Shown in pieces: positions 1 through 19,900 of a stretch of 20,285 nt of DNA (positions are counted from its first letter, which is position 1; each line of letters begins with the position of its first letter). The DNA lies in assembly GCA_965140785.1 (NCBI GenBank), contig OZ223512.1, positions 1 through 20,285 on the forward strand. Direction: 5' to 3'. Source of the stretch: an uncultured Ruficoccus sp. Lineage in GTDB: Bacteria; Verrucomicrobiota; Verrucomicrobiia; Opitutales; Cerasicoccaceae. The position numbers and the translations under genes are program-made. The notes below the pieces were generated by a model. It ran no database searches. It saw nothing but the letters and a program-made list of their open reading frames with translations, and was not told where the DNA came from.

Positions 1-1019
1 TAAAACAAATGATGAATTTGCCTTATTTGGCTGGATTTGCAGCATGGAATTTTGCCGATTTTGGATCGGAAAGGCGAAATGATGCAATACCACATGTCAA
101 TCAAAAGGGCTCATGAATTTCGACCGAACAGAAAAGGATGTTTGTTCGTTATATCGAGCCTGGTTTACTGATGATCCCGTTTTGTATATCGCATCGCGAA
201 ATTACACTAAGCGGGCAGGAATAGAAAATATCAAAGAAAACGGGGGTTTGTTTAGACTCTGTAAAAATATTCTCAAATGAACAGAGTGTGGAGCTTTTTT
301 TGAACGGCAAATCACTTGGAGAGAAACAAGTTCTGGATTATGAAGTAAATTTTGAGGTTCCTTTTCGGGATGGAAAGAACTACTTGTCAGCTGTTAGCAA
401 TAACAAACATTCCGATCAAATTACAATAGATTATACAGTTATATCAGCTAACACAAAAAAGGATGGTATAAAAGATCTTGCAATCAATGTTGGGGCAAAA
501 GTATCTTTTTATGATCCTGAGACCAAAGTGTTGTGGATCCCAGATAGACAGTATACTCCTGATTCATGGGGCTATGTTGGAGGAGCACCATATGTAACAA
601 AAGGGCAACCAGCTAAGACCGGTATTTCAGATAACATCCTTGGATCGGATTGTGATCCGTTGTATCAAACTTTTGTAGAAGGAATTAACAGCTATAGGTT
701 TGATGTGCCAAATGGAAAGTATAAACTAACTCTTTGTTTTCAGGAATATATATCCAGAGAAAAAAAGGATGACCTGATTTATAATTTTTCGACAGACAAT
801 ACAGGCGAGGAGGCTGATGAGCCTCGTGAGTTTGATATTCTGATTAATGGAAAGGAAGTTGTTAAAAATCTGAATCTGGAGCAGAATTACGGAAGTAAAA
901 GAGCCGTATCATTTTTCTTTGAGGTGGAAGTTGCAGATGAGGGCGGATTAACCGTTGATTTTAGTCCGATATCAGGAAAAGCATTATTAAGTGGTATACG
1001 CTTATCGTACTGTAAATAG
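1..1019 (+). CDS. Glycoside hydrolase family 2 (beta-galactosidase/glucuronidase-like), 3' part with C-terminal malectin-like domain; 5'-truncated by the window; two apparent frameshifts (~107-110 and ~237-246)
   Basis: Manual translation from base 3 gives ...PYLAGFAAWNFADFGSERRNDAIPHVNQKG, then in another frame MNFDRTEKD...YRAWFTDDPVLYIASRNYTKRAG, then VKIFSNEQSVELFLNGKSLG, joining ORF 288-1019. WNxxDF and NxKG are typical of the end of the GH2 catalytic barrel. AINVG...LYQT...YRFDVPNGKYKLTLCFQE...FDILING is malectin-like. Confidence 0.85.
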
Positions 1020-1200
1020 GGGATATAAATAAATGAGACACGCTTTTATGAGACGAAGGGGTTATTGCAGTATTTCTATCTTATTAAAGATTGCTTTTGG
1101 GGGATAATTGAAATACCACGGGTAATTAAGCTCTGGTAGAATTAAGCAAAGTATTCTTCTCTGGATTTGATTTTAAAATCAAGTCTCGTCTAACTCAAAT

Positions 1201-1370
1201 TTTTTGACTTTTGTGGAAAATAAAAAAGCACTTAAAATATTTATTTAAGTGCTTTTTTATTTTGATTGAATTTCTACTGGTGCCCAGTGAAAGACTATTT
1301 TGGGATTTTATTTTTCGCTATAAATCAGTAGTTTATATATGTCAAAGAATTTTGTTCTCGGTAAAGTCTC
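1201..1370. mobile_element. att-like site, copy A: hairpin + core CTGGTGCCCAGT (1277-1288) + IHF-like box (1323-1335) + arm-like motif (1356-1369)
   Basis: 1201-1288 aligns nearly gap-free with 9419-9505. The core read on the minus strand contains CTGGGCACCA (acceptor-stem 3' strand, A, CCA). AATCAGTAGTTTA matches the IHF consensus WATCARNNNNTTR. TCTCGGTAAAGTCT is identical to 9381-9394. Confidence 0.75.
1217..1263. terminator. Perfect 20-bp inverted repeat; probable bidirectional intrinsic terminator within att-like copy A
   Basis: AAAATAAAAAAGCACTTAAA (1217-1236), 7-nt loop, TTTAAGTGCTTTTTTATTTT (1244-1263). Lies between the convergent GH2 and TolC genes and just downstream of the tRNA-like 3' end on the minus strand. 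Confidence 0.7.
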
Positions 1371-1521
1371 TCTAATTTTTAAAAATTTAATAATTAAATT
1401 GTATTCTATTTACAAAGGCTTTATAGAGGCTTTGCTGTAATGTTTGCAAACAGTTTTTAGCTATTCTGTAACAGCAATTGTTTTTTTTTTTACTGTTTCA
1501 CATCTGTTTCTGTTTACAAGC

Positions 1522-2868
1522 TTACCTCCCTGTTACCTGCAAATAATTTACTTTGGCAATGCGGTACTGTGTTAAAGCATCGGTTTATAGGCATTGTGCG
1601 ACTGCTGAAGTTGGGCTTGGGCATCAAGGACATCCGAGACATTGACCATACCGGCATCATAATTATTCTGATTGACTCGTAGGTTTTCTTCGGCCTGATT
1701 TACAGATTTTTGAGCCAAATTCACCTGTTTAAAGGCTTCGGTGAGCAAGTTTTGGCCTTGCTGCATTTGCAAGAGCAGTTTTTCATTGGTGTCGTTGACC
1801 TTATTTTTGTTTTGTTCCTCTTTAATGCGACGCTCTTTCATTTTATGCTTGGCTTCCCACCAACCGGAAATGGGAATGCTGATAGTGCCGAATGCCACTC
1901 CGTAATCACCACCGTCACCCATTTCATCCATAATATCAAGATATAATGCCCCTACACCAATTGCTGCCTGGGGCAGATATTCTCCGCGTTGTAGTTTGGT
2001 TTTATAGTGTTCGGCTTCAGAACTTTTTTCGAGCATCTTATATTCATTGCGATTGTGCAATGCCTCCAGATGGTTGGTGGCATAGAGTTCGGGAGTGCCT
2101 TCAACAATAACTGTATCGGCAAAGCTGATGTTGTTGTTGTATTGAAGTCCGATATATTGACAGAATGCTGACTTTGCCAGTTCTGTACCGTTGGTGAGCT
2201 TGCTGAGGTTTATTTTCAGTTCGTTTTGCTTAAGCTCAACCTTTAATAGATCGTTGCGATTAACCATTCCTGCTTCAAAGGCATTGGAGACATCTTTGTG
2301 CAGGGTGTCTAATAGCCGGATGTAGTCTTGGAGCGTTTTTTTCTTTTGGGTCAAGGAAATAATTTGCCAGTATTGCTTTTCTGTGGATAGTAAGACTTCT
2401 TTTTGCATTGCAGCGAGCTGAAGTTGATTGACTTCGACACCGATGTTGGCGAGTTTATTGCCTGTAACAATACGTCCACCGGCATAGAGTGGTTGCGTAG
2501 CTGTAGCTGTAGCAATCACTCCTGATTCCAGCATAGACATTGCCATTCCCGGAAAGTAGGCGAACTCGGTAGCTGTTTGCAAATTTGCAGGGTTACCGTC
2601 ATATACAGGAAGGTTACCTCCCGGTATCTCTACATCAATTAAAGGGTCGGAGAATTTGTAGGCATAGGCGGAGGCAGATACCTGGGGGAAGTATTTGGTA
2701 AAAGCAGCTTTTTTAATTTCTTTGGCGGCATCAACATCCAACTTCTTGTTTTTCATTTGAACGTTGTGCTCCATTGCCAAATCTTTGCACTGTTGCAAAG
2801 AGTAGGTTTGGGGCACCTGCCATACAGGGGATGGCAAGTGCGATAATGGATATGATAAAATATTTCAT
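1522..2868 (-). CDS. TolC-family outer membrane efflux protein (~448 aa reconstructed); two apparent frameshifts (GGGG 2810-2813, TTT 1584-1586)
   Basis: Signal peptide MKYFIISIIALAIPCMAGA from ATG 2868 joins QTYSLQQCKDLAMEHN of ORF 1572-2837 after removing one base. OEP motifs YFPQVSAS, TQPLYAGG, YLPQAAIG and GMVNVSDVLDAQ are present. The natural C-terminus TDALTQYRIAKVNYLQVTGR* continues in another frame to the stop at 1522-1524. Confidence 0.9.
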
Positions 2869-2881
2869 TTGTTTCTGATTT

Positions 2882-5800
2882 TTAAAGGTTACTATTAGGC
2901 ACTTTTTTGTTGTGCTTGTTCTTAAAACGTTTTCTGACATCTACTATTTTAACCCCATCGAATATCTTCCAATACATCACAGGAAGCACCAGCACGAGTA
3001 GTATCATTGAGAAGATGGTTCCCCAGAAGATAACAATACCCATAGGCGACCAGAGTGAAGAATTTCCGGTAATCATCGGGATGATGCCAATGGCAGTGGT
3101 TGCCGAGGTTAAGAAAATGGGTACCATCCGGCGAACACCGGCATCGTAAGCAGCCTGACGAGCAGGCATCTTTTGATTTACACGTAAGTTTTCTGCATGT
3201 TCAAACAATAAGATGGTGTTACGGATGGTAATACCGAAAAGACTAATTACACCCAGTATACAGGTCAAACTTAAGCGAACATCACTAAACCAAAGGCCGA
3301 ATGAAGTGCCGGGAATAATTAAAGCCAGCGATATAAGAGCTGCGAGTGCTACGCCAATCTTTTTAAATTTGAGTAGTAAAAAGAAGAAAATAATAAATAC
3401 GGCTATGATGAGCACCTCAACAATTGAAGGAACGATCTCATTGTCGCCTTCATACATTCCTCCATATTTGTATTGGATATCGTTGGGTAAAGTGGGTGCT
3501 ATTTCATTATCCATCACTTTTCTGACTTTTTTGAAAACTTTATTTTCGCTATAGCCACGTTGTACATCAGCCATTACGGTAATGGTTGGGACACCGTTTC
3601 GTCGAACAATTTGCCCGTCGTTCCAAACGGGATTTACATCAGCTATTTGTCGCAATGGTACAGATACCCCAGGAATAAGTGTTGAAATGTATTTATCCTG
3701 AATATTTGCGGGGTTGTCGTGATTTGCAGGCTTTTCTGTTTTCATCACGATGGATAGCGGGTAGTCTTTATCCCATACGGTTCCAACAGGAATACCGGTG
3801 TAGTAGCCTGTGAGTTCGAGCTCCGCCAGACTTCTCATAACACCGAGACGAGTGGCTTCGGTTGTATGGAGGTTGACTTCCATTGTAGGAAGCGGATTTT
3901 CGAAATTAGTATGGAGCCAAACCAGCCCGTCGATATGATGAAGACTGGAAATAATACTGTCGGCATAACACTTTAGCTGCCCAATATTGTCACCAGACAA
4001 ACGAATCTCAATTGGAATTTGAGCCAACTGATAATCGAGTTGCTTGAAGCGTACAAAAGCATTAGGGAAATAGTTTTGATAGCGTGGTGCATACCTCATT
4101 AAGGATAGCTATGGTTGCCTCGTTGGAACTTGTGTTGACAATAAACTGCGCGTAGTTTTCACCGCCTAGATTGGGGGCATAAGTTGCCTGAAATCGAGGA
4201 GATGCCATGCCTTCAAATGAAGTAATGGATTTGACACGCTTGTCTTTAGATAAGATGGTGTATAGGCTATCGGTCACCTGTGTGGTGTGATTTATAGGTG
4301 TGCCCTGGGGCAGGTATATCTCAACGGCAAACTGGTCTCTGTCAGCATAAGGGAACATTCTTTTGTCAAGGTTAAAAAAAGACAACTGTTGCTATGACTA
4401 TCAAGATTAAGGTTGTTGCCAATGTGATTACCGGGAAACGGAAAGTCCACTCAAGTGCTTTGTTGTAGCCATTCTGAACAAATGTATTGATGTTGAACTT
4501 TTTCTTTTGAGCATTGGGAATTTTTTTTGATGAAAAGGAACTCTAAAATAGGAATGTAAACCATTGCCAAAATGAATGAGACCATCAAGGATATTCCGAA
4601 AGTGAGTGGGAAATCACGCACGAAGTCGTACCAGATTCCTGTAAATATACTTAACACAGGGAGGAATATCGCACATATTGAGATTGTTGCCAGGAATATT
4701 GCCCCGCTGTAGGTTTTTGCACTTAATGCTGCAGCATGCCAGCGCGAGTATCCTTTGCTGAGGTATTCGAGATAGCCGTCGATAACAACCACGGAGTTGT
4801 CAACGACCATCCCCAGAATAACAATTAGAGCAGCCATCGTTACCGTGTTAAGCGGAATGTGTAGCAGATAGCATGAACGCCAATGTCGTAAAAACGGTGA
4901 TTGGGATTGTTGTAGAGGCAATAACAGCTGATTTGAACGGGAAAAGAATCATCATAACAAGGATAATAATGATGATGGCAACGACTAAATCGCGTAAAAA
5001 TGAATTGACGGATGTGCTTACCACTTTAGGCTGGTCGGCAATACGCTGTACTGTTACGTCTTTAGGGATATGGTTCTCAAAGTTTTTTAGAATCTTATCG
5101 ACATCTTTTCCGTATTGGACAATATTATACCCTTCGCGCATTTCCATCGAAAGAATAATTGCTTTTTTACTATTATTTAGGGCGTAGCTTTTCGCTTTGG
5201 GATATTCTGTTTTGATGGTGGCTACATCTTTTAAGCGGACTATATTCCCTTTGGGGTCGGAATAGATGATTTGCTGAGCCACCTCATTTTCGGTGTCGTA
5301 TATTGGTGCAATATGCAAGGGCATATTAACATCGCCCGTTTCAATCATACCTGAGGAGGTCGTAAGACTTTGTGCAAACAGAGATGTTGCTAATAGTTTG
5401 TAGTTGATACCGTAAACCGCCAACTTATCCCTATCGAGATAGACACTTATTTGCTCTTTCTGGGTGCCATAACGACGCAGGTTCGATGCCGATTTAAGTT
5501 GCCTCAACTGGTCTTCTAATTGGTCGGCATAGCTGTCGAGTTCGCGATAAGATTGGGTGTTTGACTCTAAAGCAATTAAAAGTGCAGAAGTGTCACCAAA
5601 GTCGTCTTGAGCAATTAGTGCGAGAACTCCTGAAGGAAGCTGCATTTTGAACTGCGCCAACCCGTGTTTTATTTTTGACCAGACTTCGTCTTTATTGTTA
5701 ACATTGTCTTGCAGTTCGACCATCACATAGACCATTCCATCGCGAGACATCGAGTAGGTTTTCTCCCGATTAATCTCTTTATAAGTGAACAAGAATTTTT

Positions 5801-6014
5801 CCAAAGGCTTGGCTAGTTGTTTTTCGACCTGTGCTGAGGTTGCCCCCGGGAATACTCCGACAACAACACCTTGCCGAATGGTGAATTCAGGGAATTCTTG
5901 CTTAGGCATATTCCATAAGGCATAAGCCCCTACGGCAACCAATACCGCCACAAAAAAGAACATCAAAGAACTGTGGCGCATGACGGATTCGATGATTCCT
6001 GTTTTCTTTTTCAT
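2882..6014 (-). CDS. AcrB/AcrD/AcrF-family RND efflux permease (~1042 aa reconstructed), split by four +1 frameshifts (~4871, 4521-4528, 4374-4380, 4094-4095)
   Basis: ORFs 4848-6014, 4451-4921, 4062-4385 and 2882-4099, plus a bridging frame (IPNAQKKKFNINTFVQNGYNKALEWTFRFPVITLATT), are consecutive RND segments: PGATSAQVEKQL, IVRLKDVATI, LGMVVDNSVVVID, GITIRNTILL, RRMVPIFLTSATT. Removing 4 bases gives 1043 codons including the stop. Confidence 0.92.
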
Positions 6015-7042
6015 AGTACTTCTACTTTTAATCCACCAGACATTTTTTGATAGCCCTCAGAGATGATTTGGTCGCCATAAGCCAATCCGCTTAATACCTC
6101 AACACCGTCGCCTTTTTGTTTCCCAATTTTAATAAGTTGTTTCTGACTGTGGTTGTCAACTATTTTCCAAACAAAGCTATTTCCATTGCCATCTGTTAGG
6201 ATACATTGGTTTGGAATGACAATGGATTGACTCTCTGAATCGTCATTAATTGAGACATTACAAACCATACCCGGAAGTAGCGTATTGTCCTCATTGTTGA
6301 TTAAAATGCGGATGGGATAAGTGTGTGAAATAAGATCGGCAACTACTCCCTTTTTGCATACTTTACCTGAAAAATACTGATCGTTAGTTGCTGATACACG
6401 AGTAGTAGCTTTTTGACCGATATAGATGGCATTTATCTCCTTTTCGGGGACGGCTATTTTGATTTTTATATCCTCAATTTGCAACAAGGTTAATACGGTT
6501 TGGTTGGGCAGTACATTTTCGCCAACATTCACCATTCGATTTCCTACAATACCAGTGAAGGGGGCATAGAGGCAGCTGTTTTCTAAATTTCTGCGCGCAA
6601 TGGCCTCAGCAGATCTTGCCTTTTCCAGGTTGGTTTTCATTTCGATGTATTTGATTTCGGGCAAACTGTTTTTGTCGTAAAGCGACTGCAAGCGTTTCAT
6701 AGCATCTTCAGCCTGCTTAAGCATTGCAAATGAAGCATCGTGCGCACTTTTTAGGTTATAAGCGTTTAGCTCAGCCAGGAGTTCGCCTTTTTTTACTCGC
6801 TGTCCTTCTACCACATTTATTTTTTCTATTGTTCCGTTTACGGGGAAGCTGATAGAGGCAGAAGCTCCTTCTTCTACTACTCCGATATATTCTTTGTCGG
6901 TGGTGTTTTGGTCGTGATTTACCTTGTAGGTTTTTACCATCACACTGTTCGCTTGGCTGGAGGGTTGCTTGCTTTCGTGAGTGGAACAAGCTCCAAGGAG
7001 GAGAGCAAATCCGAAAAGCTGAATAAAAAATAGTTTTTTCAT
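6011..7042 (-). CDS. RND efflux periplasmic adaptor (membrane fusion protein), lipoprotein, 343 aa
   Basis: Probable start ATG 7042 (MKKLFFIQLFGFALLLGAC, lipobox LGAC). Motifs VNGTIEKINVVEGQRVKKGELLAEL, LYAPFTGIV, LLPGM and EVLSGLAYGDQII. The stop overlaps the RND start (ATGA, 6011-6014). Confidence 0.93.
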   Translation of the reverse strand: MKKLFFIQLFGFALLLGACSTHESKQPSSQANSVMVKTYKVNHDQNTTDKEYIGVVEEGASASISFPVNGTIEKINVVEGQRVKKGELLAELNAYNLKSAHDASFAMLKQAEDAMKRLQSLYDKNSLPEIKYIEMKTNLEKARSAEAIARRNLENSCLYAPFTGIVGNRMVNVGENVLPNQTVLTLLQIEDIKIKIAVPEKEINAIYIGQKATTRVSATNDQYFSGKVCKKGVVADLISHTYPIRILINNEDNTLLPGMVCNVSINDDSESQSIVIPNQCILTDGNGNSFVWKIVDNHSQKQLIKIGKQKGDGVEVLSGLAYGDQIISEGYQKMSGGLKVEVL

Positions 7043-7085
7043 TTTCTGAATTTTGTTTGTTATTACTTGTTGAAATTTGTATTGT

Positions 7086-7667
7086 CTATCCAAATATTTT
7101 AGGCACCATAAAGTCAATGGCTTTGTTGAGTTTATCTTCGTCTAAAAAGCCGTCTTTCTTTATGCTGTAAAAGACCAGTCCGAGGAAGGCTGCCAAAAAC
7201 ATTTCTGAAATCCAGCCTATTTCTTTGCGTTTTATTTCACGAAGCTCTTTGAGGTCGTATCCATCTTCTAAAATTCGACTGATGTAGCTTTGCTCAAAGC
7301 TGATTATACTTAGCAGATGATTGCGATATAATTCATTCGATTGCTCTTGTTTGATGATACGGTAGAGATTCTTTTTGTTGATGACCTCTTTGTGGAACTC
7401 CCTGATGTAGGTTTTTAAACGGTCTAACATATTTTTCTGTTTATCGACCTTGCTTTTGACATGCCTTCTCAGGTTGAGTAGTTCCATCTCGACTACGGCA
7501 TCAAACACGTCTATTTTACTGTTGTAGTAGTGATAGAGCGTGCTTTTAGCTTTGCCACACTCTGCAGCAATTTCATCCATTGTGGTTTTCTTTAAACCGC
7601 CTTTTTGAAATAGCTTCTGCGCATTTAATAGAATCTTGCTTTGTATAGTGTCTTCTTTGTTTTTCAT
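7086..7667 (-). CDS. TetR/AcrR-family transcriptional regulator
   Basis: N-terminal HTH ILLNAQKLFQKGGLKKTTMDEIAAECGKAKSTLYHYYNSK; first gene of the efflux operon. Confidence 0.93.
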   Translation of the reverse strand: MKNKEDTIQSKILLNAQKLFQKGGLKKTTMDEIAAECGKAKSTLYHYYNSKIDVFDAVVEMELLNLRRHVKSKVDKQKNMLDRLKTYIREFHKEVINKKNLYRIIKQEQSNELYRNHLLSIISFEQSYISRILEDGYDLKELREIKRKEIGWISEMFLAAFLGLVFYSIKKDGFLDEDKLNKAIDFMVPKIFG

Positions 7668-7669
7668 CG

Positions 7670-7754
7670 ACCAAAATCAGTTTTTAGTAGTGTTTAAAAT
7701 CGACTAACTGTTATTTTGGTGGCAAAGCTATCTTGATAATGAAAGGTCATCAAG
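7670..7754 (-). promoter_or_regulatory. Candidate Bacteroidota sigma-A promoter of the tetR-efflux operon with a possible TetR operator
   Basis: Minus-strand TAGCTTTG (7723-7730) matches the -7 element TAnnTTTG, and CTTG (7751-7754) lies 20 bp upstream as an imperfect -33 element. An imperfect inverted repeat ACCAAAATCAGTT (7670-7682) / AACTGTTATTTTGGT (7706-7720) lies between promoter and start codon. Confidence 0.5.
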
Positions 7755-7854
7755 ACCTAAAGGAGAGATAAAATGTTCCTTTGGTTGAATTATTTGTTTT
7801 TTTTAGCTTCCCAAATCGAATAATCGTTACTTTTATTCGACAATAAATAGTAGT

Positions 7855-8736
7855 ATGGAAGAAAAACTTTTCAGTTTATCTATAGAGGAGCTTGTGGCGA
7901 ATGAGATGAGTGCCGGTATTGGTAATGATATTGTAGTAAGCTCGCAGCTAACAAAGTTTATAGATATACTCAACTTTCCTTTGCGTATAAATGCTTTTGT
8001 TTTCTTTGTGTGTACTAAAGGAAGTATCAATGTTACAATAAACCTGAAGGAGTGGAATGTAGTTAAAAATACTTATGTGGCAAGTTTGCCCGAAAATGTG
8101 ATTGGACTAAATTGTTTAAGTGACGATTTTGAAGGGGTTGTTATTCTGTTTTCTCTGGAATACCTTAGGAAAATCAGTGTTGATTTAAAGAATGTGTTAC
8201 CTTATTATACTTATGTAAGAAATAACCCCTGCTTTACTGTATCCGATGAAAAAGTATCCACAATAACACGTTTTTATGATTTGCTATATGATTCATTAAT
8301 AGATGAAAAAAGCAAACGAAGAGATGATATTATCAAGGGGCTTGTTATATCTATCATATCCAAAATAGCTGATGATGTAGATGGGATTAGCTTGACAGGC
8401 ACATCTTTTCAGATAAAAAGTAAAGAGTACTATTTTCTATGTTTTATTGATTTGTTACTCAAGCATTTTAGAAAAGAGCATCATGTTGGTTTTTATGCCG
8501 ATAAACTGGCTCTTAGCCCCAAATACTTATCTTCTATTATCAGAAAGACTAGTGGTTCTTCAGCTCCTCAATGGATTAATGATTATATTGTGGTTGAAGC
8601 CAAAACACTGCTAAAATCATCAGATATGAATATTAACCAGATTGCCGATTACCTGTATTTTCCGAACCCTTCGTTCTTTAGTAAGTATTTTAAGCAGCAT
8701 ACAGGATTAACACCCAAAGAGTACAGGAGTAAGTAA
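7855..8736 (+). CDS. AraC-family transcriptional regulator, divergent from the efflux operon
   Basis: C-terminal double HTH: VGFYADKLALSPKYLSSIIRKTSG...INQIADYLYFPNPSFFSKYFKQHTGLTPKEYR. Confidence 0.93.
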   Translation: MEEKLFSLSIEELVANEMSAGIGNDIVVSSQLTKFIDILNFPLRINAFVFFVCTKGSINVTINLKEWNVVKNTYVASLPENVIGLNCLSDDFEGVVILFSLEYLRKISVDLKNVLPYYTYVRNNPCFTVSDEKVSTITRFYDLLYDSLIDEKSKRRDDIIKGLVISIISKIADDVDGISLTGTSFQIKSKEYYFLCFIDLLLKHFRKEHHVGFYADKLALSPKYLSSIIRKTSGSSAPQWINDYIVVEAKTLLKSSDMNINQIADYLYFPNPSFFSKYFKQHTGLTPKEYRSK

Positions 8737-9085
8737 GGAGATAAAGGGATTGATGTATGATTAACACCTTTGGGGATTGGCATTTTTCTGTATCGTTTTG
8801 TTGCGTCGGGAAGTTTAGTTTTTTTGGGTTTTTATGTATTGAATTTAGTGAAGGGGAAACCCATGAGCTAAATATATGCTGGCTTTCTTAATTGCCCGAT
8901 AGGGTGGAAGTAGGCGGGCAAAAACTAACTCTTTTTGCACCGAACCTTTGTCAATGAGCCATTTTTATCAAGCTGTTTTTCAACTCAGGTTCTAATGTTT
9001 GTACTTCGACTTTGTTCATTTGCAGCTAACGGCAGTCTGACGGTGAGTATAAGAATCCTTCCTTTTGCTCAATTTCCTGACAAAT

Positions 9086-9208
9086 TCATCCAATCTTTTC
9101 CTGAAGATTTAAGTAAATTGTTATGATCCTAAATCTTACAAAAACAGGAACTTCTTCATTAATTTTCTGTCTCGCTTTTTTCACAATAAAGTTAAGAGTC
9201 AATCCCAT
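9086..9208 (-). pseudogene. Possible N-terminal remnant of a tyrosine integrase (arm-DNA-binding domain-like), 40 codons
   Basis: ATG 9208 gives MGLTLNFIVKKARQKINEEVPVFVRFRIITIYLNLQEKIG*. By eye the first ~27 aa resemble the N-terminal F-x-x-K-K...P-(V/I)-(F/Y)-x-R pattern of Bacteroidota integrases. It starts ~290 bp inside the att-like core and reads away from it. Confidence 0.45.
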
Positions 9209-9346
9209 CTTTTTTCCATTTTTAAGGTTAAAGAAAAAATTGGTCTCGATTGTAGCTTAAAAATACCCTTTTAGGGGCTCGTTTTCAAGATCAAATCGAG
9301 TCAATTTATATCAATTTAAATATTGAAATAAAGAGCTTTATGAGAA

Positions 9347-9590
9347 TTGCCGAGACTTGTTTGTTATAAAAAAGTAGAGGTCTCGGTAAAGTCTAGTTAG
9401 AATGACTTTTTTTGTGCTTTTTTGATTCCTATGGAAAACAAAAAAGCACTTAAATGTTGATTTTAAGTGCTTTTGATTTTGTTTGGATTTCTCCTGGTGC
9501 CCAGTAAAGGTGCACGATTTATTTTGTAATGCGCTAAATATCAGTGATTTTGTTTGCTTTTTGTTTAATGGTCCCTTTCCGGTAACTCTA
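9347..9590. mobile_element. att-like site, copy B: arm-like motifs + hairpin + core CTGGTGCCCAGT (9494-9505) + IHF-like box (9539-9551)
   Basis: Homologous to 1201-1370. Inverted pair TTGCCGAGAC (9347-9356) / GTCTCGGTAA (9380-9389). CGCTAAATATCAGT (9532-9545) matches CGCTATAAATCAGT (1316-1329) at nearly the same distance from the core. Confidence 0.75.
9442..9474. terminator. Inverted repeat AAAAGCACTTAAA / TTTAAGTGCTTTT; probable intrinsic terminator in att-like copy B
   Basis: 13-bp perfect stem identical to the inner stem of copy A; the 7-nt loop has diverged (TGTTGAT vs ATATTTA). Confidence 0.65.
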
Positions 9591-9969
9591 TAATTACGAG
9601 TTGTTTAATAATTCAAATATCGACTAAATGTACTAAATTTTATGCAGATATGAGAACGTTGTTGTAAGTGGTGAGAAGTTAATAAGTTTGATTTTAAGAG
9701 ATTCTTCGTTTTGCTTAGCCAAGTTTGTGTTGAAGCTAAACCCTTCTTTTGCGCTGTAGAAGGAATAAATTTTGATTTTTATTCAATTTTTTTTATAAAA
9801 TGTATTAGCATGATTTGAACCATTTAATGATAGAGTTGAAGCTTCGGGGAGACTTTCTGTCTCTATAGAACCTGTATATTTGCGAATGGAATGTACTTTG
9901 TTCAATATTACTTCCTATCTAATAAACTCAGAGATTATGTTCTAAATCTTATGAATAATATTGTGCATC

Positions 9970-10265
9970 AATCTACCAATTGATTTCAAGATATTAAGAA
10001 TGTTTTCTCCAGCGCCTAGATTCTTTTTTTCCTTAATCGATAGCGGACCATATCAATACTTTTTTTGGGGGAAAAGTTAGCGCTGCAATTTCTTTTGTTG
10101 AAAGGTTTAATTTTAAAAAGGCGCATAACTTTCTTTCATTAGTTGATAAATCAGGATATGCTCTGTCAAGATTAGTATAAAAATCATCGAAAACAGCATT
10201 AAAATGTGTTTCAAACTCATTCCATACACTTTTTGAATCCCTCAATTATTTCAGTAATTTTTTTA
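9970..10265 (-). pseudogene. Remnant of a LuxR-type C-terminal HTH regulator (truncated and frameshifted)
   Basis: WNEFETHFNAVFDDFYTNLDRAYPDLSTNERKLCAFLKLNLSTKEIAALTF, continuing in another frame as KSIDMVRYRLRKK. Similar to the C-terminus of 12269-12826. No N-terminal part found. Confidence 0.8.
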
Positions 10266-10673
10266 ATCTAAAACAGGTTGCACTCCCAGCGAATTTCTAA
10301 AACTGAACTAGGATGGCGTTAAATTGCTGTTTGTGTGGTAGATTGATCAACGAAATTAAGTAAGTTGAGGTCGGTTTCTTTTTCAGGAGATACCATTAAT
10401 TCTGGAAGGGAAATAATTCCGTTTTGCGAAACATTGATAGATATTTCCAAACTTCAGTGCTAATTGATTCAAAATAGGCTACCGGTTAGAACTTTAAAAT
10501 CTTAAAAACTTCGACAAACCTTTCTTTATTGAGGGGAGGAATGCGTTTGCCCGCTTTGCGAAACATGAGCTTTTAAGCCCCTGATTCATGTAATTATTCA
10601 AAAAAATGAAACTATTAGATTTTATTAATTGTCTTTTTTTAATTTCGCGACGCTAAGCTATTACATGTAAATT

Positions 10674-11603
10674 ATGATAAAAACATCAGAAAAAATAATC
10701 AAAGTAGAATCGATTACGACATTACATAACATGTTGGATGTTGAGCCTCCCCAGCACTCGTTAATTAGTGTGGTTGATGTATCGAAGTTAAAAATTACAG
10801 AAGATTTAGTTGGTGTTAAAGTTAGTGCTGATTTTTACTACATCGGATTAAAAAATGCCGAATGTGGTTCCCATTACGGAAAAAACGATTATGATTTTGG
10901 TGATGGAGTCTTGGCTTTTACAGCACCACGTCAGGTTATTGCGGCAAAATCAACAACTGATTTTGATCAGGAGCAAGGTTGGATGTTGTTTTTTCATCCG
11001 GATTTAATACATGGAACTTCTTTAGGCGAAAATATTGGTAAATATTCGTTCTTTAATTATGACACTAACGAGGCTCTTCACTTGTCGGATAATGAGAAAA
11101 AAACATTGAATGATTGCACCCGAAAAATAAAAGAAGAATTAACGGTTGTTGGTGATAATTACAGTCAGGATATAATTATTTCAGGCTTAGAATTATTATT
11201 AAACTATTGTATGAGGTTTTATGCCCGGCAGTTTCGTACTAGAGAAAAACAAAATAGGGATATTCTTGAAAAAGTTGAGAGTGTGTTAGAAGAACGTATG
11301 AAAGGTGATCAACTTGAGAAATATGGTTTTCCTTCAGTTTCAGATCTGGCTGAAAAAGTAAATTTGTCGAAGAATTATCTGAGCGATCTGCTCCGAAAAG
11401 AAACCGGGCAAAGTGCGAAAGAACATATTAATGATGTTTTGATAGATAGAGCGCAATCTAAATTATTGTTGAACACAGAAGAGTCAGTTGCCGAAATAGC
11501 CTATTCTCTAGGGTTTAAATATCCACACTATTTTAGCCGGCTGTTTAAAGCCCAAACTGGTTACACTCCTCAGCAATACCGAAAATTGAAACAACATAAT
11601 TAA
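10674..11603 (+). CDS. AraC-family transcriptional regulator
   Basis: YGKNDYDFGDGVLAFTAPRQV and GWMLFFHPDLI in the N-terminal domain; C-terminal HTH NLSKNYLSDLLRKETGQS...VAEIAYSLGFKYPHYFSRLFKAQTGYTPQQYR. Confidence 0.93.
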   Translation: MIKTSEKIIKVESITTLHNMLDVEPPQHSLISVVDVSKLKITEDLVGVKVSADFYYIGLKNAECGSHYGKNDYDFGDGVLAFTAPRQVIAAKSTTDFDQEQGWMLFFHPDLIHGTSLGENIGKYSFFNYDTNEALHLSDNEKKTLNDCTRKIKEELTVVGDNYSQDIIISGLELLLNYCMRFYARQFRTREKQNRDILEKVESVLEERMKGDQLEKYGFPSVSDLAEKVNLSKNYLSDLLRKETGQSAKEHINDVLIDRAQSKLLLNTEESVAEIAYSLGFKYPHYFSRLFKAQTGYTPQQYRKLKQHN

Positions 11604-12268
11604 TGTAGAAACTGTCCACAAGGGATTCTTGTAAATCTGGTTTTCGGAGGAATTTTCTTTGTTAAAGATTTCTGGGTGCAGTTATTGGTGAAATAGGTTG
11701 TTTTCTTTTAATAACCATTGTTTTATCATTGATCTCAGAATGGTCGTAAAAGCATTTGCCTAATTTGTATAAGTTACATTATGGCAGGAAATAAATTTTG
11801 TAGAAGTAATATTTCTTCAATCTCTGCTGAAAAAAGATAATATGTGTTATTGTTTCTGTGATATGTGTTGTGGCAAGTTGTAGTCAAACGATATTTTTGT
11901 GTATGAAATGATGTAAAACGGAGAGATTGTAATATACGGGCCTCCAATGAAATGCTTGTTTCATGATATAGGTTTAATATGTTAAATATTAATATGTGTT
12001 GTGTTAAAAATTGTTATACTTTTTATTGTTGTATAAATTATTATCATAATACATAATCGGTAATGAAGAAGAATGGAGAAAAACTTTTTATTCATATTTA
12101 TTTCCACACTATTTTTCTTCAGCTGTTTCTAAATGTAATTTTCTTATGGAATATAATTTTTCAAATACCAGGACAAATTGTAACCCGATTCGGGGAAAAC
12201 TATAAAACAGGCAGATAACCTCAAAACTACATTGTTTTACAAACCAAACTCAAAAAGCGTTTATCCTG

Positions 12269-12826
12269 ATGGACTACTTGTTTTCAGCATTAATTCTATT
12301 ACTAATACTTATTATCTCGATTACATTTATTGTATGTGTGCATAAGAATCATAGACTTAATAAGTTGTATGTTGAAAATCAGCAACTTGCTAAACTTACA
12401 GAGTTGCACGAAAAGGAATTGGCTGCTAAAGCACTACAATTGGCAAATATGAATGAGAAGTTAATGTCAACCTTAAAAAGAATAAAGAAATTGCCCATTC
12501 AGGAAGGAAAAACCAATGAAAAAGAACGAAAAAGCATAATGAGTGATATTCAGCTGAATCTGCCGGAAGAAGCCTGGAAAGAATTTGAAACAAGGTTCAG
12601 CGAATTAAATAGTGTTTTCTACAGAGAATTACTCGACAAATGTCCCGCACTTACCCCTACAGAGCTAAGAATTTGTGGAATGCTTCGTTTAAATCTAACA
12701 TCAAAAGAAATTGCACTTATTAGCAACCGCAGTTTAGGTACCATTGAAAATTCCAGAAGTAGCATTCGTAAAAAATTGGATCTTAAGGATGATGACAACC
12801 TGGCGACGTATCTGATAAACATATAA
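12269..12826 (+). CDS. Membrane-anchored LuxR-type HTH transcriptional regulator, 185 aa
   Basis: N-terminal hydrophobic helix (LFSALILLLILIISITFIVCV), coiled-coil-like segment, then WKEFETRF...PALTPTELRICGMLRLNLTSKEIALISNRSLGTIENSRSSIRKKLDL. Confidence 0.85.
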   Translation: MDYLFSALILLLILIISITFIVCVHKNHRLNKLYVENQQLAKLTELHEKELAAKALQLANMNEKLMSTLKRIKKLPIQEGKTNEKERKSIMSDIQLNLPEEAWKEFETRFSELNSVFYRELLDKCPALTPTELRICGMLRLNLTSKEIALISNRSLGTIENSRSSIRKKLDLKDDDNLATYLINI

Positions 12827-13137
12827 TTCTGTTTTACATATCAGTTGGCAACGTTAGCTAACTTCTGTTTATATCGGCCCTGAAGTCTATCCGGAGTTGA
12901 GCACCGAAACCGATCGCGAACCGGAATGTATATTAAAAAACTTGGTTATTGTAGTCGAAACAGAATTGAATTTCATTATAAGTATTTGGTACATAAACAG
13001 ATTATTATGTAATTCTAACGTTTACATGTGTATGCAGGGAGAAAACTCTTCGTTTGAAAAGATTTCTATCGCTGTTGAGATGAAAAAAAGAATCAGTTAT
13101 TTGCAATGAAATGTAGCGAAGAATCTCATTTTTTTGG

Positions 13138-13166
13138 CAATTTAACCGTACACCACGGTTAAATTG
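13138..13166. terminator. Perfect 12-bp inverted repeat with 5-nt loop; terminator or operator
   Basis: CAATTTAACCGT-ACACC-ACGGTTAAATTG followed by a T-rich tract. Confidence 0.5.
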
Positions 13167-13217
13167 TTTATTTTTTATTAGAGGAGAAGTATTATTTTAT
13201 TTTCTGCCTACAAGGAA

Positions 13218-13320
13218 TCAGTGATACTTACCCTTCGTATCAGTAATTCTTACTATCCCTATCAGATGTATGTATTTTTTTGTCAGTAATTTATACTGTT
13301 TTTGTCAGTATTATTTACCT
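13218..13320 (+). repeat. Five phased direct repeats (core TCAGTA, period 21-22 bp); probable transcription-factor binding array
   Basis: TCAGTG 13218, TCAGTA 13240, TCAGAT 13262, TCAGTA 13283, TCAGTA 13305; four of five are followed by TAC about 11 bp later. Confidence 0.7.
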
Positions 13321-13565
13321 CCAGTCTTTCATGTTTTCTGATTATCTAAAAATGTAAGACTAATTTTATATGACTTTGTACTGTTCTGAATAATAGGTGG
13401 TTAGATTTTTATTATTCCCCATTTGTGAGGTTTTTATGAGGGGGCTGTTTTGCTGATTCTACAAATATAGGAGGTATTCATGAGGCAATAAATACGGTGA
13501 ACGTTTTGAAGTTCATTTTATTAGCTGTTACCTAAATTCAAAATTAATTATAAAAAAATCAAAAT

Positions 13566-13784
13566 GTGGAAAAATCTACCCCGGCTTCAGAAGAAAAAAA
13601 TACAGGAGCAGAAGAAAAAAAGGAGCACGAACTTTATGAGCAAGCTTGTGCGTTACGTAGTTTGGCCTATAATGTTCTTATACATAGAGGATTATTCAAG
13701 GGGAGTGAAAAACAAAAAGAGAATAAAAAAGATACTATTTGGTATAGGCTAAAAAAAATACTCGATATCTATTCTTTAATGTAA
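13566..13784 (+). CDS. Small hypothetical protein (72 aa) upstream of the adhesin
   Basis: ORF with a charged, helical-looking sequence after an A-rich leader; no recognised domain; overlaps an alternative 62-aa frame. Confidence 0.3.
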   Translation: MEKSTPASEEKNTGAEEKKEHELYEQACALRSLAYNVLIHRGLFKGSEKQKENKKDTIWYRLKKILDIYSLM

Positions 13785-13912
13785 TTAGCTATTTGAGCAA
13801 CAATGTAATGGAGATTTTATATGTGCTGCCGCATCTAACACAATTTGTATTCTACAGATTTGATAAAAGCGTTTGAACAAGAATAAACTGAAAACATAAA
13901 TACAAACGAATT

Positions 13913-16900
13913 ATGATTTACAAATTTACTTTATTATTAGGACTACTGCTATTTACAGGGTTAACCCCTTTGTTTGCAGACGATCCACCAGTAATGAGTG
14001 GAAACGAAACTTCTTCTCCGCAATATTTTACGGAAACGAATACACCGGTGGCTCTATTTCCGGATTTCACGATTAAAGATTTAGAAGATGATGATATTAA
14101 AGGTTTGACTATCCATTTTAGCTCCGGTTACCAGAGCAACCAGGATACTTTGCTTTTTACAAACACAAGCAAAATAGAAGGACATTTTGATGATACGCAA
14201 GGAGCACTAGTATTATTAGGCGATGCTTCTCCTGATGAATACCAGGCAGCCATGCGAAGTATTACCTATGTAAACAATGCACCTTTATTTAGTTTAATAG
14301 ATGGCAGCCAGCGTGAATTTACCATTTCACTGGCTAATGACAATTATTTCTCACAAGATTTAAAGTTGGACAATGGTCACTTCTATGAGTATGTAAATAC
14401 TCCCGTTGAATGGATTGAGGCTAAGGCCGCTGCCAGTGCTAAAACCTATTACGGATTGAAAGGTTACCTCGCTACGGTTACCTCTGAAAATGAGAAAGAC
14501 TTTATTCTGAGCATATCAGATGGAACTGAGCAAGCTTTGTGGTTAGGAGGTTCAGATGAAGCAATACCGGATACATGGAAATGGGTAACCGGCCCGGAGG
14601 ATGGTACAATCTTCTATCAAAACGGAGCAGTAGTTAGTGGCAAGTATGAAAACTGGTCTACTGGTCAGCCGGATGACGCAGGGAGTGTAGAGACGAGTTT
14701 GCAATTTTTCACTTCAAACGGCACATGGAATGACAGGCAAAATGGCTATACGTCTGGATATATCGTCGAGTATGGCGGAATGGATGGCGACCCAACTATC
14801 AATATGACGACAACTACAACGCTAAAAATTGATGTAGTTCGGCCGGAAGCCCCTGGAGGAATAGTTGACAATTTACGTGTATGGTTTAATGCCAACAGTG
14901 GCACTTCAATAACCAACGGAAATATTACGAGTTGGGAAGGCCAAAAGCCATATGGTGTAAATACAACTACTGTAAATGATGTTGCAGGAGATCCCTCAGT
15001 AGTTCCCAACAGTGCAAACTACAACTCGGTGGTGTCTTTTGATGAAGATGATGCGATACGAACTACTTCCAGAGTACCTTATACAACTTATTTTAATGCA
15101 AGCTCTGATCGTAATACCACATTTTTAGTAAAAAAATCTACGAAAGGTAACGTTGAAGCAGGCTATGCCTATGCGAATGGCGTCACTACTGAAAGAGCTG
15201 GTTATTTCGAAAGGGCAGCTGGTTATCAACGTTCAGATTATGGTAAAGATAAAACTATATTAGCTGGAAGTACAACTATGATCAATAAGTATATTATTGC
15301 CAGACAAGATGTGCAACCTGGTGATTTTTCTCTTTATTTGGATGGTGCGTTGGAGAGACAGATCGATAAATTCAGTTCACTGGCTGGTAGTTCCGAAGGT
15401 TATTTAGGCTTTGGAGCCAACCCGGATGATTTTTCATTCCAATCTGCTACAGATATCGCTGAATATATTATTTATGCCTCAGATCTTTCTCCAACAGAAA
15501 TAAAAGAAGTAGAATCTTACCTGGCGCTTAAATACGGTATATCCTTAAATCAGACAGTTGCTACCAATTATCTGGCTTCTGATGGTACTGTTATTTGGTC
15601 GGCTACTGATAATGCCGGCTATGCTACTGATATTTTTGGTATTGGGCAAGATAACGCATCTGGCCTTAATCAAAAAGTATCACGATCTGTAAATAACAAT
15701 AACAGCCCTGTTCTTTCAACAACAGCTAACTTTTCATTGTCGAATGCCGATGCAAGCCGAACAGCACTTGGCGAAGGTAATTTTATGGTGATGGGACACA
15801 ACAACGGGACCGAAAACTCATTTACATCAAGCTTTAACGGCGGAACCAATAACCGTACTGATCGTGTTTGGAAAGTAGATGAGACCGGTACGGTAGGAGA
15901 GGTGTATTTTGCCATCCCCTATGCTGCCGTAACATTTCCTTCGGGAGGAACACCTTCGGTTATTATTTCGGATGATGAAAATTTTGATGACCAGGATCAG
16001 GTTCTGCCGTTGACCTACAACCGTACTCAGGGCGGGTATTATGCAAGAATTAATCCGGGTGATGGTGATTATATTGCATTGGCAATAAGTGAAATTTCTG
16101 TGACTTTACCAACCTTTTACAGGACGGAATCTATCGGAGATGAGACAACAGGAATTACATCGTATCCAAGTTATTCCGATTTTATAAACAATACAAACAG
16201 TACATACACAACTTTTTCTCAGCATTGGAATTTCGATGATAGCTTTTTTGCCGATGGCGTATATTTTTACCGAACCAATAATGCAAAAACAACGGTAACG
16301 CGTTATCCGAGTCTTGCAGATCTGGCTGCTGGAACTAACGGAATAGTATATAACTTTACAAGCGGAGGAAGCCCTCAGGATTGGAATGACGATGACGAAT
16401 TCTTTGCATCAGGAGATCAGTTCTTCAGAACCGCTTCTTCTAACTCTCTCGAAAAATCAACCGGTTTAACAGCATATAATTCGTTTGCTGATTTAATGAC
16501 GAATACAAATGGAACATTCTACGCGTTTACGGTAAACTTTAATTTTGAGGATCAGTTTTTTCATGATGGAGAATATTTCTACCGAACAAATACACACCAG
16601 AGTAATAATACTCAATTTGGAGTAGCACGGTATGCATCTTTAAGTGACTTAGTTGCGAGTAAAACCATAGATTCTCCGACTTTCGGTCCATGGTCTACAA
16701 ATGATGATATTTTTGCAGTAGGAATTACAGCATCGTTTTCGGTAAGTAAAGATACATTAACCATGGCTGAAAATGCCGGAAAAGGAGAGTTTACTGTTGT
16801 TTTAGATGCCCGGCCATCTACCGATGTTGTTTTAGATATTGCAAGCGATGATACAAATGAGGCAACAGTTGATAAAGGCCAATTAACTTTTACTCCTGAT

Positions 16901-19900
16901 AATTGGAAGGTGGCTCAAACCATTACTGTAACAGGAGTAGATGATTATATAATCAGGAATGATTCGGCGATAGTTACCGTTTCAGTGAATACATCTAGTG
17001 ATAATACTTTTGCTGCATTAGCAAATCAATCAGTAGAGATTATATTAGAAGATGATGATGTAGCAGGTTTTACTCTTAGTGAATCAGCATTAACGATTGG
17101 CGAAAATGCCGGAACCGGAACATTTACCGTTGTTTTAGATGCACAGCCATTGAATGATGTCGTTTTTAAAGTTACAAGCGATGATACGAATGAGGCTACA
17201 GTTGAAGAATCAACATTAACCTTTACAACGGCCAACTGGAATACACCACAAGCAGTCACTGTTACTGGTGTGAATGATAATATTGACCGTAACGATAACG
17301 CCACAATCACTGTTTCGGTAGACGATGCATCCAGTGATGATTATTTTGATGCCTTGGATGATCAAAAAGTGGCAATCACTTTAACCAATGATGATACAGC
17401 TGGTTTTACGGTAAGTGAAACAAATCTAACAGTACCCGAAAATGCGGGAACAGGTACCTTTACGGTGGTTTTAAATACAGAACCAACAACTGATGTTGTT
17501 CTTGATGTTGTATCCGATAAAACGGCTGAAGCTACGATAGATAAGTCAACACTGACCTTTACATCGGCTAATTGGGACACGCCGCAGACGGTGACAGTTA
17601 CTGGTGTGGATGACGATATCGATAGAGATGACACGGCAACAATCACTGTTATGGTGAAGGATGCTTCCAGCGATGACCCTTTCGATGCGCTGACTGATCA
17701 AACTGCAGGAATCACCCTGACCGATGATGATACAGCTGGTTTTACGGTAAGCAAAATAGCCTTAACAATTGATGAAAATGCAGGAACAGGCAGCTTTACT
17801 GTAGTTTTAAATTCAGAACCGACAAGTGACGTTGTTTTTGATGTTACGAGCGATAAAACGGATGAAGCTACGATAGATAAGTCAACACTGACCTTTACAT
17901 CGGCTAATTGGGACACGTCGCAGACGGTAACAGTTACTGGTGTGGATGACGATATCGACAGAGATGACACGGCAACAATCACTGTTGCGGTGAAGGATGC
18001 TTCCAGCGATGACACTTTCGATGCGCTGACCGATCAAACCGTAGGAATCACCCTGACCGATGATGATGTGGCACCAACAGTTTCTACATCTGCGGTTTCT
18101 TCTATCACTTCAAGCTCAGTAACTATGGGAGGTGATATGTCAGATAAAGGTAGTGCTGATGTAACCGAAACCGGGGTTGTCTATTCTTCGATAAACGCAT
18201 CTCCCGAGATAGGAGGAGCAGATGTAACGCAAGATTCAAATGGGGCAGCGACTGGAATTTTTAGTGAAACTATTGGTTCACTTGCTCCCAATACCACTTA
18301 CAACTTTCAGGCGTATGCAATTAATAGTGCAGGAACGAGCTATGGTGGGGTTCAAAGTTTTACAACCAAACAAACTCAAACCATTACGTTTAATTCTCTT
18401 TCAGATAAAGCGTATGGTAACAGTGACTTTGATCCTTCAGCTACGGCAAGTAGTGGTTTAACGGTCTCTTATAGTAGTTCTAATACATCTGTGGCCACTA
18501 TTGTGGCCGGAAAGATTCATATTGTTGGAGTTGGTTCATGCACTATTTATGCTGACCAAGCCGGTGACGACACTTATGATGTGGCAGCCCAGGTTTCGCA
18601 AGGATTAAACATCACTCAAAAAGAAATAACGGTAACAGCAGATGCCGGTCAGACAAAAGTTTACGGAGATGCAGATCCGACTTTCACTTACACTACGTCA
18701 GCAACATTGGAAAGTGGCGATTCTTTCACCGGAGCACTTTCAAGAGCAACAGGAGAAGATGTAGGAAGTTATGCTATTACAATCGGAACACTGAGTGCCG
18801 GATCGAACTACGATTTAACTTTCGTGAGTAAAGACTTTAGCATCACTCAAAAAGCAATAACAGTAACCGCTGATGCAGGTCAGACAAAAGTTTACGGAGA
18901 TGCAGATCCGACATATACTTACACGGCATCTTCAGCATTGGAAAGCGGTGACTCATTTAGCGGAGTACTATCAAGAACAAGTGGAGAATCTGTAGGTTCT
19001 TATGCCATTTTACAGGGAACACTGAGTGTCGGATCGAACTACGATTTAACTTTCGTGAGTAAAGACTTTAGCATCACTCAAAAAGCAATAACGGTAACAG
19101 TTGATGCCGGTCAGACAAAAGTTTACGGAGGTGCAGATCCAACATTTACTTACACGGCATCTTCAGTATTGGAAAGCGGTGACTCATTTAGTGGAGTACT
19201 ATCAAGAACAAGCGGAGAATCTGTAGGTTCCTACGCCATTTTACAGGGAACATTGAGTGCCGGATCGAACTACGATTTAACTTTTGTGAGTAAAGACTTT
19301 AGTATCACCCAAAAAGCAATAACGGTAACAGCTGATGCCGGTCAGACTAAAGTTTATGGACAAGCAGACCCGACTTTCACTTACACCACGTCAGCAACAT
19401 TGGAAAGCGGTGATTCATTTAGTGGAGTACTATCTAGAACAAGTGGTGAGTCTGTGGGTTCTTATGCCATTTTACAGGGAACACTGAGTGCCGGATCGAA
19501 CTACGATTTAACTTTCGTGAGTAAAGACTTTGCAGTTACACAGAAACAAATAACCATAACAGCAGATGCCGGTCAGACAAAAGTTTACGGAGATGCAGAT
19601 CCGACATTTACTTACACGGCATCTTCAGCATTGGAAAGCGGTGACTCATTTAGTGGAGTACTATCAAGAACAAGCGGAGAATCTGTAGGTTCCTACGCCA
19701 TTTTACAGGGAACACTGAGTGCCGGATCGAACTACGATTTAACTTTCGTGAGTAAAGACTTTGCAGTTACACAGAAACAAATAACCATAACAGCAGATGC
19801 CGGTCAGACAAAAGTTTACGGAGATGCAGATCCAACATATACTTACACGGCATCTTCAGCATTGGAAAGCGGTGACTCATTTAGTGGAGTACTATCAAGA

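Follow-up and report, generated by a model that had tools for sequence, protein, structure and literature searches.

Tandem accretion of integrated elements together with decayed cis-mobilizable elements (CIMEs) is described for ICESt1/ICESt3-type elements of Streptococcus thermophilus and reviewed by Guedon et al. (2017; PMC5704250). According to a table in the same article, the mobilizable elements NBU1 of Bacteroides and MTnPi4 of Prevotella intermedia integrate at the 3′ end of a tRNA-Leu gene. In this study a stretch of 20,285 bp was analyzed, which constitutes the whole contig OZ223512.1 of the assembly GCA_965140785.1 and is called the window in the following. It is very probably a part of tandem islands that were serially integrated at the 3′ end of the tRNA-Leu(CAG) gene of a Prolixibacteraceae bacterium. 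At its boundaries, short copies of the tRNA 3′ end (the cores) are flanked by island arms, namely an integrase-side (proximal) arm and a far-end (distal) arm.

Judged by sequence comparison, the closest known case is tandem accretion with CIME-like elements. The likeness comprises the direct order of the cores, internal junctions that carry element arms, the loss of the integration and transfer genes with only integrase stubs remaining, and a middle unit that is devoid of transfer genes, the open reading frames (ORFs) remaining in 1291–9493 being efflux and regulator genes. In contrast to the streptococcal CIMEs, the window belongs to the Prolixibacteraceae (Bacteroidota), the integrase has an Arm-DNA-bind_5 domain, and the target is tRNA-Leu(CAG). 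In addition, the interior of the middle unit has probably been replaced, and the ends of the replacement cut one arm and the integrase gene. NBU1 and MTnPi4, which were compared by their table entry, come from the phylum to which the window belongs, have a tyrosine integrase, and likewise target a tRNA-Leu gene at its 3′ end. They are listed as mobilizable, whereas neither a relaxase nor an oriT was seen in the window units by Pfam analysis, and TraG (TIGR03783) was not found within the tRNA-Leu islands of three relatives (G001, Draconibacterium mangrovi G005 and the uncultured Sunxiuqinia chromosome G064), the TraG copies being located outside of these islands.

Two sites in the window have the same architecture. 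The 12-nt core CTGGTGCCCAGT, as read from the sequence, is present at 1277–1288 and at 9494–9505. The blocks to the left of the cores (1214–1288 and 9432–9505) were 86.8% identical over 76 nt in an alignment with gaps (E 8e-9 relative to intergenic DNA of the window) and 72% identical over 74 nt in an ungapped comparison. Each block contains a hairpin with a 7-nt loop, one with 20 pairs (hairpin 1, 1217–1263) and one with 13 pairs (hairpin 2, 9442–9474), and the stems match while the loops differ, as do the spacers at 1264–1276 and 9475–9493. Both hairpins scored as terminator-like, and about 0.1–0.2 such sites are expected in shuffled sequences. To the right of the cores, CGCTATAAATCAGT follows 27 nt past core 1 (1316–1329) and CGCTAAATATCAGT 26 nt past core 2 (9532–9545), with the common consensus CGCTA(T/A)A(A/T)ATCAGT, and the motif CGGTAA is found at 1359–1364 and 9580–9585, 71 and 75 nt from the respective core end. 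The longest exact matches between the two copies have 12–13 nt. Coordinates and alignment thus bore out an earlier note on this DNA, which had described two non-coding sites 8,217 bp apart with the same layout on both sides of a 12-nt core, including a hairpin with a conserved stem and a diverged loop. The likeness of the two sites is not due to chance, because the same blocks recur in dozens of related genomes. Within the window's own assembly the left- and right-block patterns were found only at these two places, but this count says nothing about the true host, because the contig is probably foreign to its bin, judged by G+C content. A tRNA search of the window found none, and an Rfam search (E ≤ 1) gave nothing above threshold, the only match being the trpB motif on hairpin 1 (E 0.9, 30.7 bits compared with a cut-off of 59 bits). 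A 14-nt exact match between 1356–1369 and 9381–9394 was considered as an odd asymmetry; this was ruled out, as the match is an arm motif that is common to both arm types.

One genome per species was scanned with a 19-nt pattern (18 fixed bases) spanning the core, which yielded 29 loci. ARAGORN was applied to 14 of these, the remaining 15 being from other phyla and chance-like by eye. At nine of the 14 checked loci the core match was the 3′ end of tRNA-Leu(CAG), with the same hairpin block next to it; in all, ten of the 29 loci had the hairpin block, in Draconibacterium, Sunxiuqinia and Maribellus. Core 2, CCTTTACTGGGCACCA, is identical to the last 16 nt of tRNA-Leu(CAG), and the tRNA body is absent. 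Core 1 contains ACTGGGCACCA exactly and the remainder with two mismatches, and is a degenerate copy of the same 3′ end, so that the two cores form a direct repeat.

The homology continues from the core into an integrase gene. Positions 9130–9510 of the window were 93% identical to the DNA just downstream of tRNA-Leu(CAG) in G005, 87.5% in Sunxiuqinia elliptica (G004) and 81% in G001. The proximal arm at 9209–9494, which is complete and holds hairpin 2, was 81–93% identical to the segment that separates tRNA-Leu(CAG) from the integrase start in G005, G004, G001 and G064. In G001, G004 and G064 the DNA past the tRNA is collinear with the window and reaches the start codon of an integrase of 407–410 aa with Arm-DNA-bind_5, Phage_int_SAM_5 and Phage_integrase domains, and in G005 the integrase ends at 215 aa and the catalytic domain is absent. 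In the window only integrase stubs were found at this place, which correspond to residues 1–28, about 74–88, and 137–152 of the 407-aa relatives (tblastn E of 1.5e-8 for the first and 8e-4 for the last). A search of the contig for PF00589 gave no match, and no intact recombinase was found in the window, in agreement with the earlier note. Because the same DNA runs from tRNA-Leu(CAG) into the integrase gene in the relatives, the left block is the integrase-side arm of an island that occupies the tRNA gene, and the hairpin is island-borne. The remnant of a third island's arm at the left junction (1176–1277) was aligned with the attL arms of four genomes, and the homology comprised only the hairpin and about 40 nt beyond it. 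In Maribellus luteus (L044:18285–19268) an ISL3-family transposase gene was observed inside the integrase-side arm, between the hairpin and the remainder of the arm.

The 150 nt to the right of core 1 were compared with 301 sampled Prolixibacteraceae genomes (E ≤ 0.01), and homologues were present in 63 of them. In the alignment of the far arms, about 115 nt are conserved up to and including the tRNA-derived core, and past the core each locus has a sequence of its own. Distal arm 1 of the window keeps about 80 nt with the block around CGCTATAAATCAGT and one motif copy (GAGACTTTACCGAGAAC at 1354–1370), while its inner part is gone relative to G111, which has a full-length far arm. The far arm that follows core 2 (9511–9670) belongs to a subtype b; over about 165 nt it is collinear to an attR of G310 (L137), which is followed by the native terminator of the tRNA. 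The right blocks are thus far-end arms of the same island family. In most far arms, a TAT(C/A)TTTG box that points to the core is located at a distance of about 30 nt upstream from the conserved block (e.g., L025:470–500, L050, L053 and window 9640–9670), and window copy 1 has lost the box. The box resembles the −7 promoter element of Bacteroidota (consensus TAnnTTTG), and transcription across attR, or in a circular form across attP, could start from it. Just inside the far arms of G310 (L137:75–105) and G111 (L138, about 2930–2960), a stretch was seen that is similar to the T-arm/acceptor end of another tRNA (GGTTCGAATCCTGG...). ARAGORN called no tRNA on these stretches, which may be the scar of a different integration system.

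Both arm types contain a 17-nt motif, GAGACTTTAYCGAGAAC: the distal arm has one copy, and the proximal arm has two to three, of which one is inverted. In the proximal arm of the window a GAGAC..CGAGA copy is located at 9379–9394 and its inverted partner at about 9349–9362. In five genomes, 1–11 motif copies per genome were found, compared with 0–1 for the reversed control. Nearly all inspected copies lie in arms adjoining tRNA-Leu-derived cores or integrase genes, and those at L095, L098 and L101 are truncated or atypical. This low copy number and these specific surroundings are not those of a miniature inverted-repeat transposable element or of a repetitive extragenic palindromic-like repeat dispersed throughout the genome, the case that the earlier note had named as speaking against its proposal. 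Lambda-type and CTnDOT-type integrases use arm-type binding sites. The integrase of the island family is similar in that it has an N-terminal arm-DNA-binding domain (Pfam Arm-DNA-bind_5) and a motif that is repeated in both arms, and GAGACTTTAYCGAGAAC would be the arm-type binding site of this domain; in contrast to the lambda and CTnDOT types, the binding of the integrase to the motif is something that we infer.

In the relatives, rather than in the window's own organism, attB, attL and attR sites are all documented. The tRNA-to-integrase DNA described above represents attL. An empty attB is found in G147, in which the intact tRNA-Leu(CAG) is directly followed by a different, native terminator. 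In G005 the far arm and the core are located 79 kb from tRNA-Leu(CAG) on the same strand, and this attR is followed by the native terminator (91% identity over 54 nt); in G310 the native terminator follows the subtype-b far arm (89% identity over 52 nt). The flank of the unoccupied site in G147 thus matches the flanks in G005 and G310. The core of a sister subfamily is TCTTGTTCTGGGCA; in all five genomes searched tRNA-Leu(GAG) ends with it, and in G005 a far arm 22.8 kb away contains a second copy. In G294, G245 and G296 the tRNA-Leu(GAG) gene and the far arm with its core were seen 0.1–3 Mb apart on opposite strands, which suggests inversions or other rearrangements between the island ends.

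Both junctions of the window read far arm, core, integrase-side arm. Therefore, they are junctions of tandem islands, as serial integration at one tRNA gives exactly such junctions. Composite junctions of this kind are likewise present in G064, G111 and the isolate Maribellus luteus XSD2; among 24 distinct far arms, such a junction followed five according to pattern search and seven by eye. The earlier note had postulated att-type junctions at a tRNA 3′ end, each core being flanked on either side by element arms in the way expected from serial integration, and at least three stacked element pieces. These claims are supported, the tRNA being tRNA-Leu(CAG). In G064 (C3:2238885–2421400; L114, L085, L091), three units of about 76, 1, and 105 kb, about 182 kb in all, appear to be lined up behind one tRNA-Leu(CAG), divided by far-arm/core junctions, and a further island of the family is located in the opposite orientation near 2.45–2.46 Mb.

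In the proposed mechanism a tyrosine integrase would insert islands one after another into the 3′ end of tRNA-Leu(CAG). The target tRNA would be encoded on the minus strand, and its gene would either follow to the right of the contig or have been lost from it. The integrase-side arm would restore the last 16 nt of the tRNA, supply the terminator hairpin and reach the integrase gene about 300 nt further on, and the far-end arm of about 115–165 nt would end in the same 16 nt. A new island would enter the restored tRNA, and the older island would be pushed outward, which is the order of arrival that we infer for the window. Older islands would then decay: the middle island would have been left with integrase stubs and an interior that is now a 7.6-kb efflux block with five frameshifts, and the third island would have been reduced to about 110 nt of arm.

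The efflux block has a counterpart at another kind of site. Positions 1371–8736 of the window were 97.4% identical over 7,391 nt to G064:C3:1073086–1080465, where all five genes are intact. The G064 copy is located 1.16 Mb from tRNA-Leu(CAG), and its site is no tRNA-Leu gene. It is bordered on one side by the remnant (218 aa) of an unrelated integrase, at which a conjugative-type region ends, and on the other by a glycan-use cluster; one TraG copy is 29 kb away. The window has single-base insertions at 2813 in the TolC-like gene and at 4095, 4380, 4528, and 4871 in the RND pump gene, as well as a 23-nt deletion at 7065 relative to the G064 copy. A uniform sequencing-error rate is unlikely, because a 6.4-kb frame encoding a repeat protein on the same contig is open throughout, and the frameshifts are regarded as real decay. 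At the left end, C1 of the close relative G111 was 95% identical to window 1–1373, with the same GH2 context and including junction 1, and the homology was lost at 1373, exactly where the efflux block starts. Comparison with G064 and G111 placed the block ends at 1371–1373 inside the far arm and at about 8987–9055 inside the integrase gene. These ends are off the cores, and therefore the block is not a clean att-bounded cassette. Probably, the efflux block replaced the interior of the island by recombination away from the att sites.

The earlier note had gone further and had likened the modules, among them the RND module, to an integron-like array of integrase-less cassettes. Stated in this way, these points are not supported. 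The integrase stubs and the truncated integrases in relatives point to decayed autonomous islands, the homology breaks are not at the cores, and the array is CIME-like. Shared with integrons are ordered units at one site, a recombination site at each boundary and, in principle, recombinase-less units that are movable by one enzyme. In contrast to integrons, the window units comprise several genes including their own regulators and are several kb or longer, and the sites are tRNA-derived cores with long arms instead of folded attC sites. The integrases are missing by deletion and not by design; no intact integrase is present on the contig, and neither a platform integrase nor an attI was seen. 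A related idea would be that the tRNA-Leu(CAG) locus of the Prolixibacteraceae is a standing "island rack", in which a neighboring or newly arriving family member would use its intact integrase to excise, rearrange or transfer integrase-less segments with a core on each side, such as the 8.2-kb efflux unit. We regard this as rather unlikely; if it were true, arrays of many units, tens to hundreds of kb long, would be serviced by a single enzyme.

Several observations weigh against the tandem-island reading. The window contains neither a full tRNA nor an intact integrase nor a terminal attR with native flank, and the array is deduced from two internal junctions. In G111, the 40 kb to the right of junction 1 contain no tRNA, core or family integrase; given this empty stretch, arrays can be of large size or have undergone rearrangement. 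Since the efflux block does not end at the cores, the 8.2-kb unit is not an original element. The simple model does not account for the three genomes in which the tRNA-Leu(GAG) gene and the far arm are far apart and on opposite strands. Among the public-run contigs listed, none bridges either junction in the way the window does, and run X1 has almost no depth over 8672–9338. Finally, the source metagenome bin does not fit the G+C content of the contig. The window (C41 of G000) is part of a 4.36-Mb bin with contigs of mostly about 60% G+C, compared with 38% for the window, and the tRNAs and integrases of the bin are all on other contigs. Nucleotide matches place the contig in the Prolixibacteraceae, order Marinilabiliales, phylum Bacteroidota, and it is probably misbinned and derived from another organism. 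The contigs C9 (39% G+C), C28 (28%) and C44 (40%) of the same bin also look foreign, and all four are probably binning contaminants.

Some of these observations would fit an assembly artefact, in which multi-copy arms and cores led to the misjoining of three unrelated regions, so that the array would not be real. The misbinning is in accordance with this, and so is the different location of the efflux block in G064. The public-run comparison used assembled contigs, and no run contained more than half of the sampled words. The Logan contigs of four runs break near 1257–1385 and 8736–9927, and the depth in X1 is about 35–43 over most parts and 3.45 over 8672–9338. However, the exact matches of 12–13 nt between the copies are by themselves too short to mislead an assembler, junction 1 and the GH2 flank were confirmed in G111 through 1373, and the stretch 8737–9208 is unbroken from the end of the AraC gene into the integrase stubs. 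Moreover, composite junctions are present in an isolate genome and in chromosome-level assemblies. An artefact is rather improbable. In X1, position 1257 is connected to 9476 by a contig of 22.7 kb that extends for only 26 nt past the joint, and a link from 9425 back to 1210 was seen in contigs of X1, X14 and X16. The interpretation of these joints as a deletion product and a circle junction was rejected, as the G111 variant of junction 1 has a copy-2-like spacer. Because of this spacer, and because most hairpins of the family have a copy-1-like loop, the joints are best read as the aligner switching between two copies with 87% similarity, and not as evidence for excision.

The right blocks might alternatively be small RNA genes with their own promoter, the likeness to tRNA being part of the RNA and not an att core. 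The TAT(C/A)TTTG box at a fixed distance in most far arms and the terminator-like hairpin behind them are in favor of this. An alignment of 25 arms, however, yielded two predicted pairs, −0.05 kcal/mol and no compensatory change, and thus no consensus RNA structure. In addition, no Rfam family reached the threshold, the trpB-motif match covers the hairpin, and the promoter-like part is missing from window copy 1. The blocks are located at island ends with a tRNA-derived core, and the set of attB, attL and attR explains them fully, which makes the small RNA explanation very improbable. In addition to its att function, the far arm could still give rise to a transcript. A single island with long imperfect direct repeats of 76 nt from one integration can practically be dismissed: the direct repeats do bracket 8.2 kb, but neither adjoins a tRNA body, in both, the right-hand flank is a far arm and the left-hand flank an integrase-side arm, and one integration would give the tRNA at attL and the native flank at attR, as in G005 and G147.

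Taken together, serial integration of islands is the preferred reading, and the features of the window are compiled in Table 1 on this basis.

Table 1. Features of the 20,285-bp window and the evidence for their assignment.
Feature	Position	Strand	Evidence
GH2-family gene, 3′ part (DUF4982 and malectin domains), beyond the leftmost junction	288–1019	+	Pfam
Proximal-arm remnant of third island, about 110 nt, with hairpin 1 and spacer	1176–1277	−	Alignment
Core 1, degenerate 3′ end of tRNA-Leu(CAG)	1278–1295	−	Sequence comparison
Distal arm of middle island, inner side truncated	1296–1370	−	63 of 301 genomes; comparison with G111
Efflux block, five genes	1371–8987		Pfam; comparison with G064
TolC-like gene, one frameshift	1572–2940	−	Pfam
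RND pump, four frameshifts	2882–6014	−	Pfam
Membrane-fusion protein	6011–7117	−	Pfam
TetR	7086–7667	−	Pfam
AraC-type regulator	7855–8736	+	Pfam
Tyrosine integrase stubs	9055–9208	−	tblastn
Proximal arm of middle island, complete, with hairpin 2	9209–9494	−	Homology to G005, G004, G001, G064
Core 2, CCTTTACTGGGCACCA	9495–9510	−	Sequence comparison
Distal arm of right-hand island, subtype b	9511–9670	−	attR of G310
Interior of right-hand island, at least 10.6 kb	9671–20285		ORFs; Pfam
AraC-type regulator, right-hand island	10674–11603	+	Pfam
GerE/LuxR-type regulator, right-hand island	12269–12826	+	Pfam
Giant repeat protein, >2,124 aa, runs off the contig	13913–20284	+	ORF

Some further observations were made on the outer parts of the window. 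Relative to window 1–287, contigs of four public runs have one extra nucleotide after position 102 and lack one at 237/238, and because of these differences the GH2-family gene is probably also frameshifted upstream of 288. In the right-hand island, positions 9511–14000 had no nucleotide match in G064 beyond weak ones. An ORF of 70 aa on the minus strand (10033–10245) resembles, by eye, the C-terminal half of the GerE/LuxR-type regulator and may be a fragment of a paralogue; a Pfam search with this ORF gave nothing at 1e-5. The giant protein is of the secreted type and has a C-type lectin-like domain near its start, and at least seven tandem repeats of 231 nt (77 aa) are present at 18600–20285.

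A literature search for islands in Prolixibacteraceae or Draconibacterium returned no paper with those names. The tRNA-Leu-specific island family of the Prolixibacteraceae is previously undescribed, while the phenomenon itself is of a known kind and no new mechanism is involved, island stacking and decay being a known route of bacterial genome growth. The definition of the family covers both arms, the 16-nt core, the tRNA-Leu(GAG) subfamily, the empty target and the frequent tandem arrays with truncated integrases. For the Prolixibacteraceae, which are little-studied Bacteroidota of marine and sediment habitats, the arms are simple markers to delimit islands in which genes for polysaccharide use, efflux and adhesins travel. 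In addition, the family offers a second, phylogenetically distant setting for the ideas about accretion and cis/trans mobilization that were derived from streptococci.

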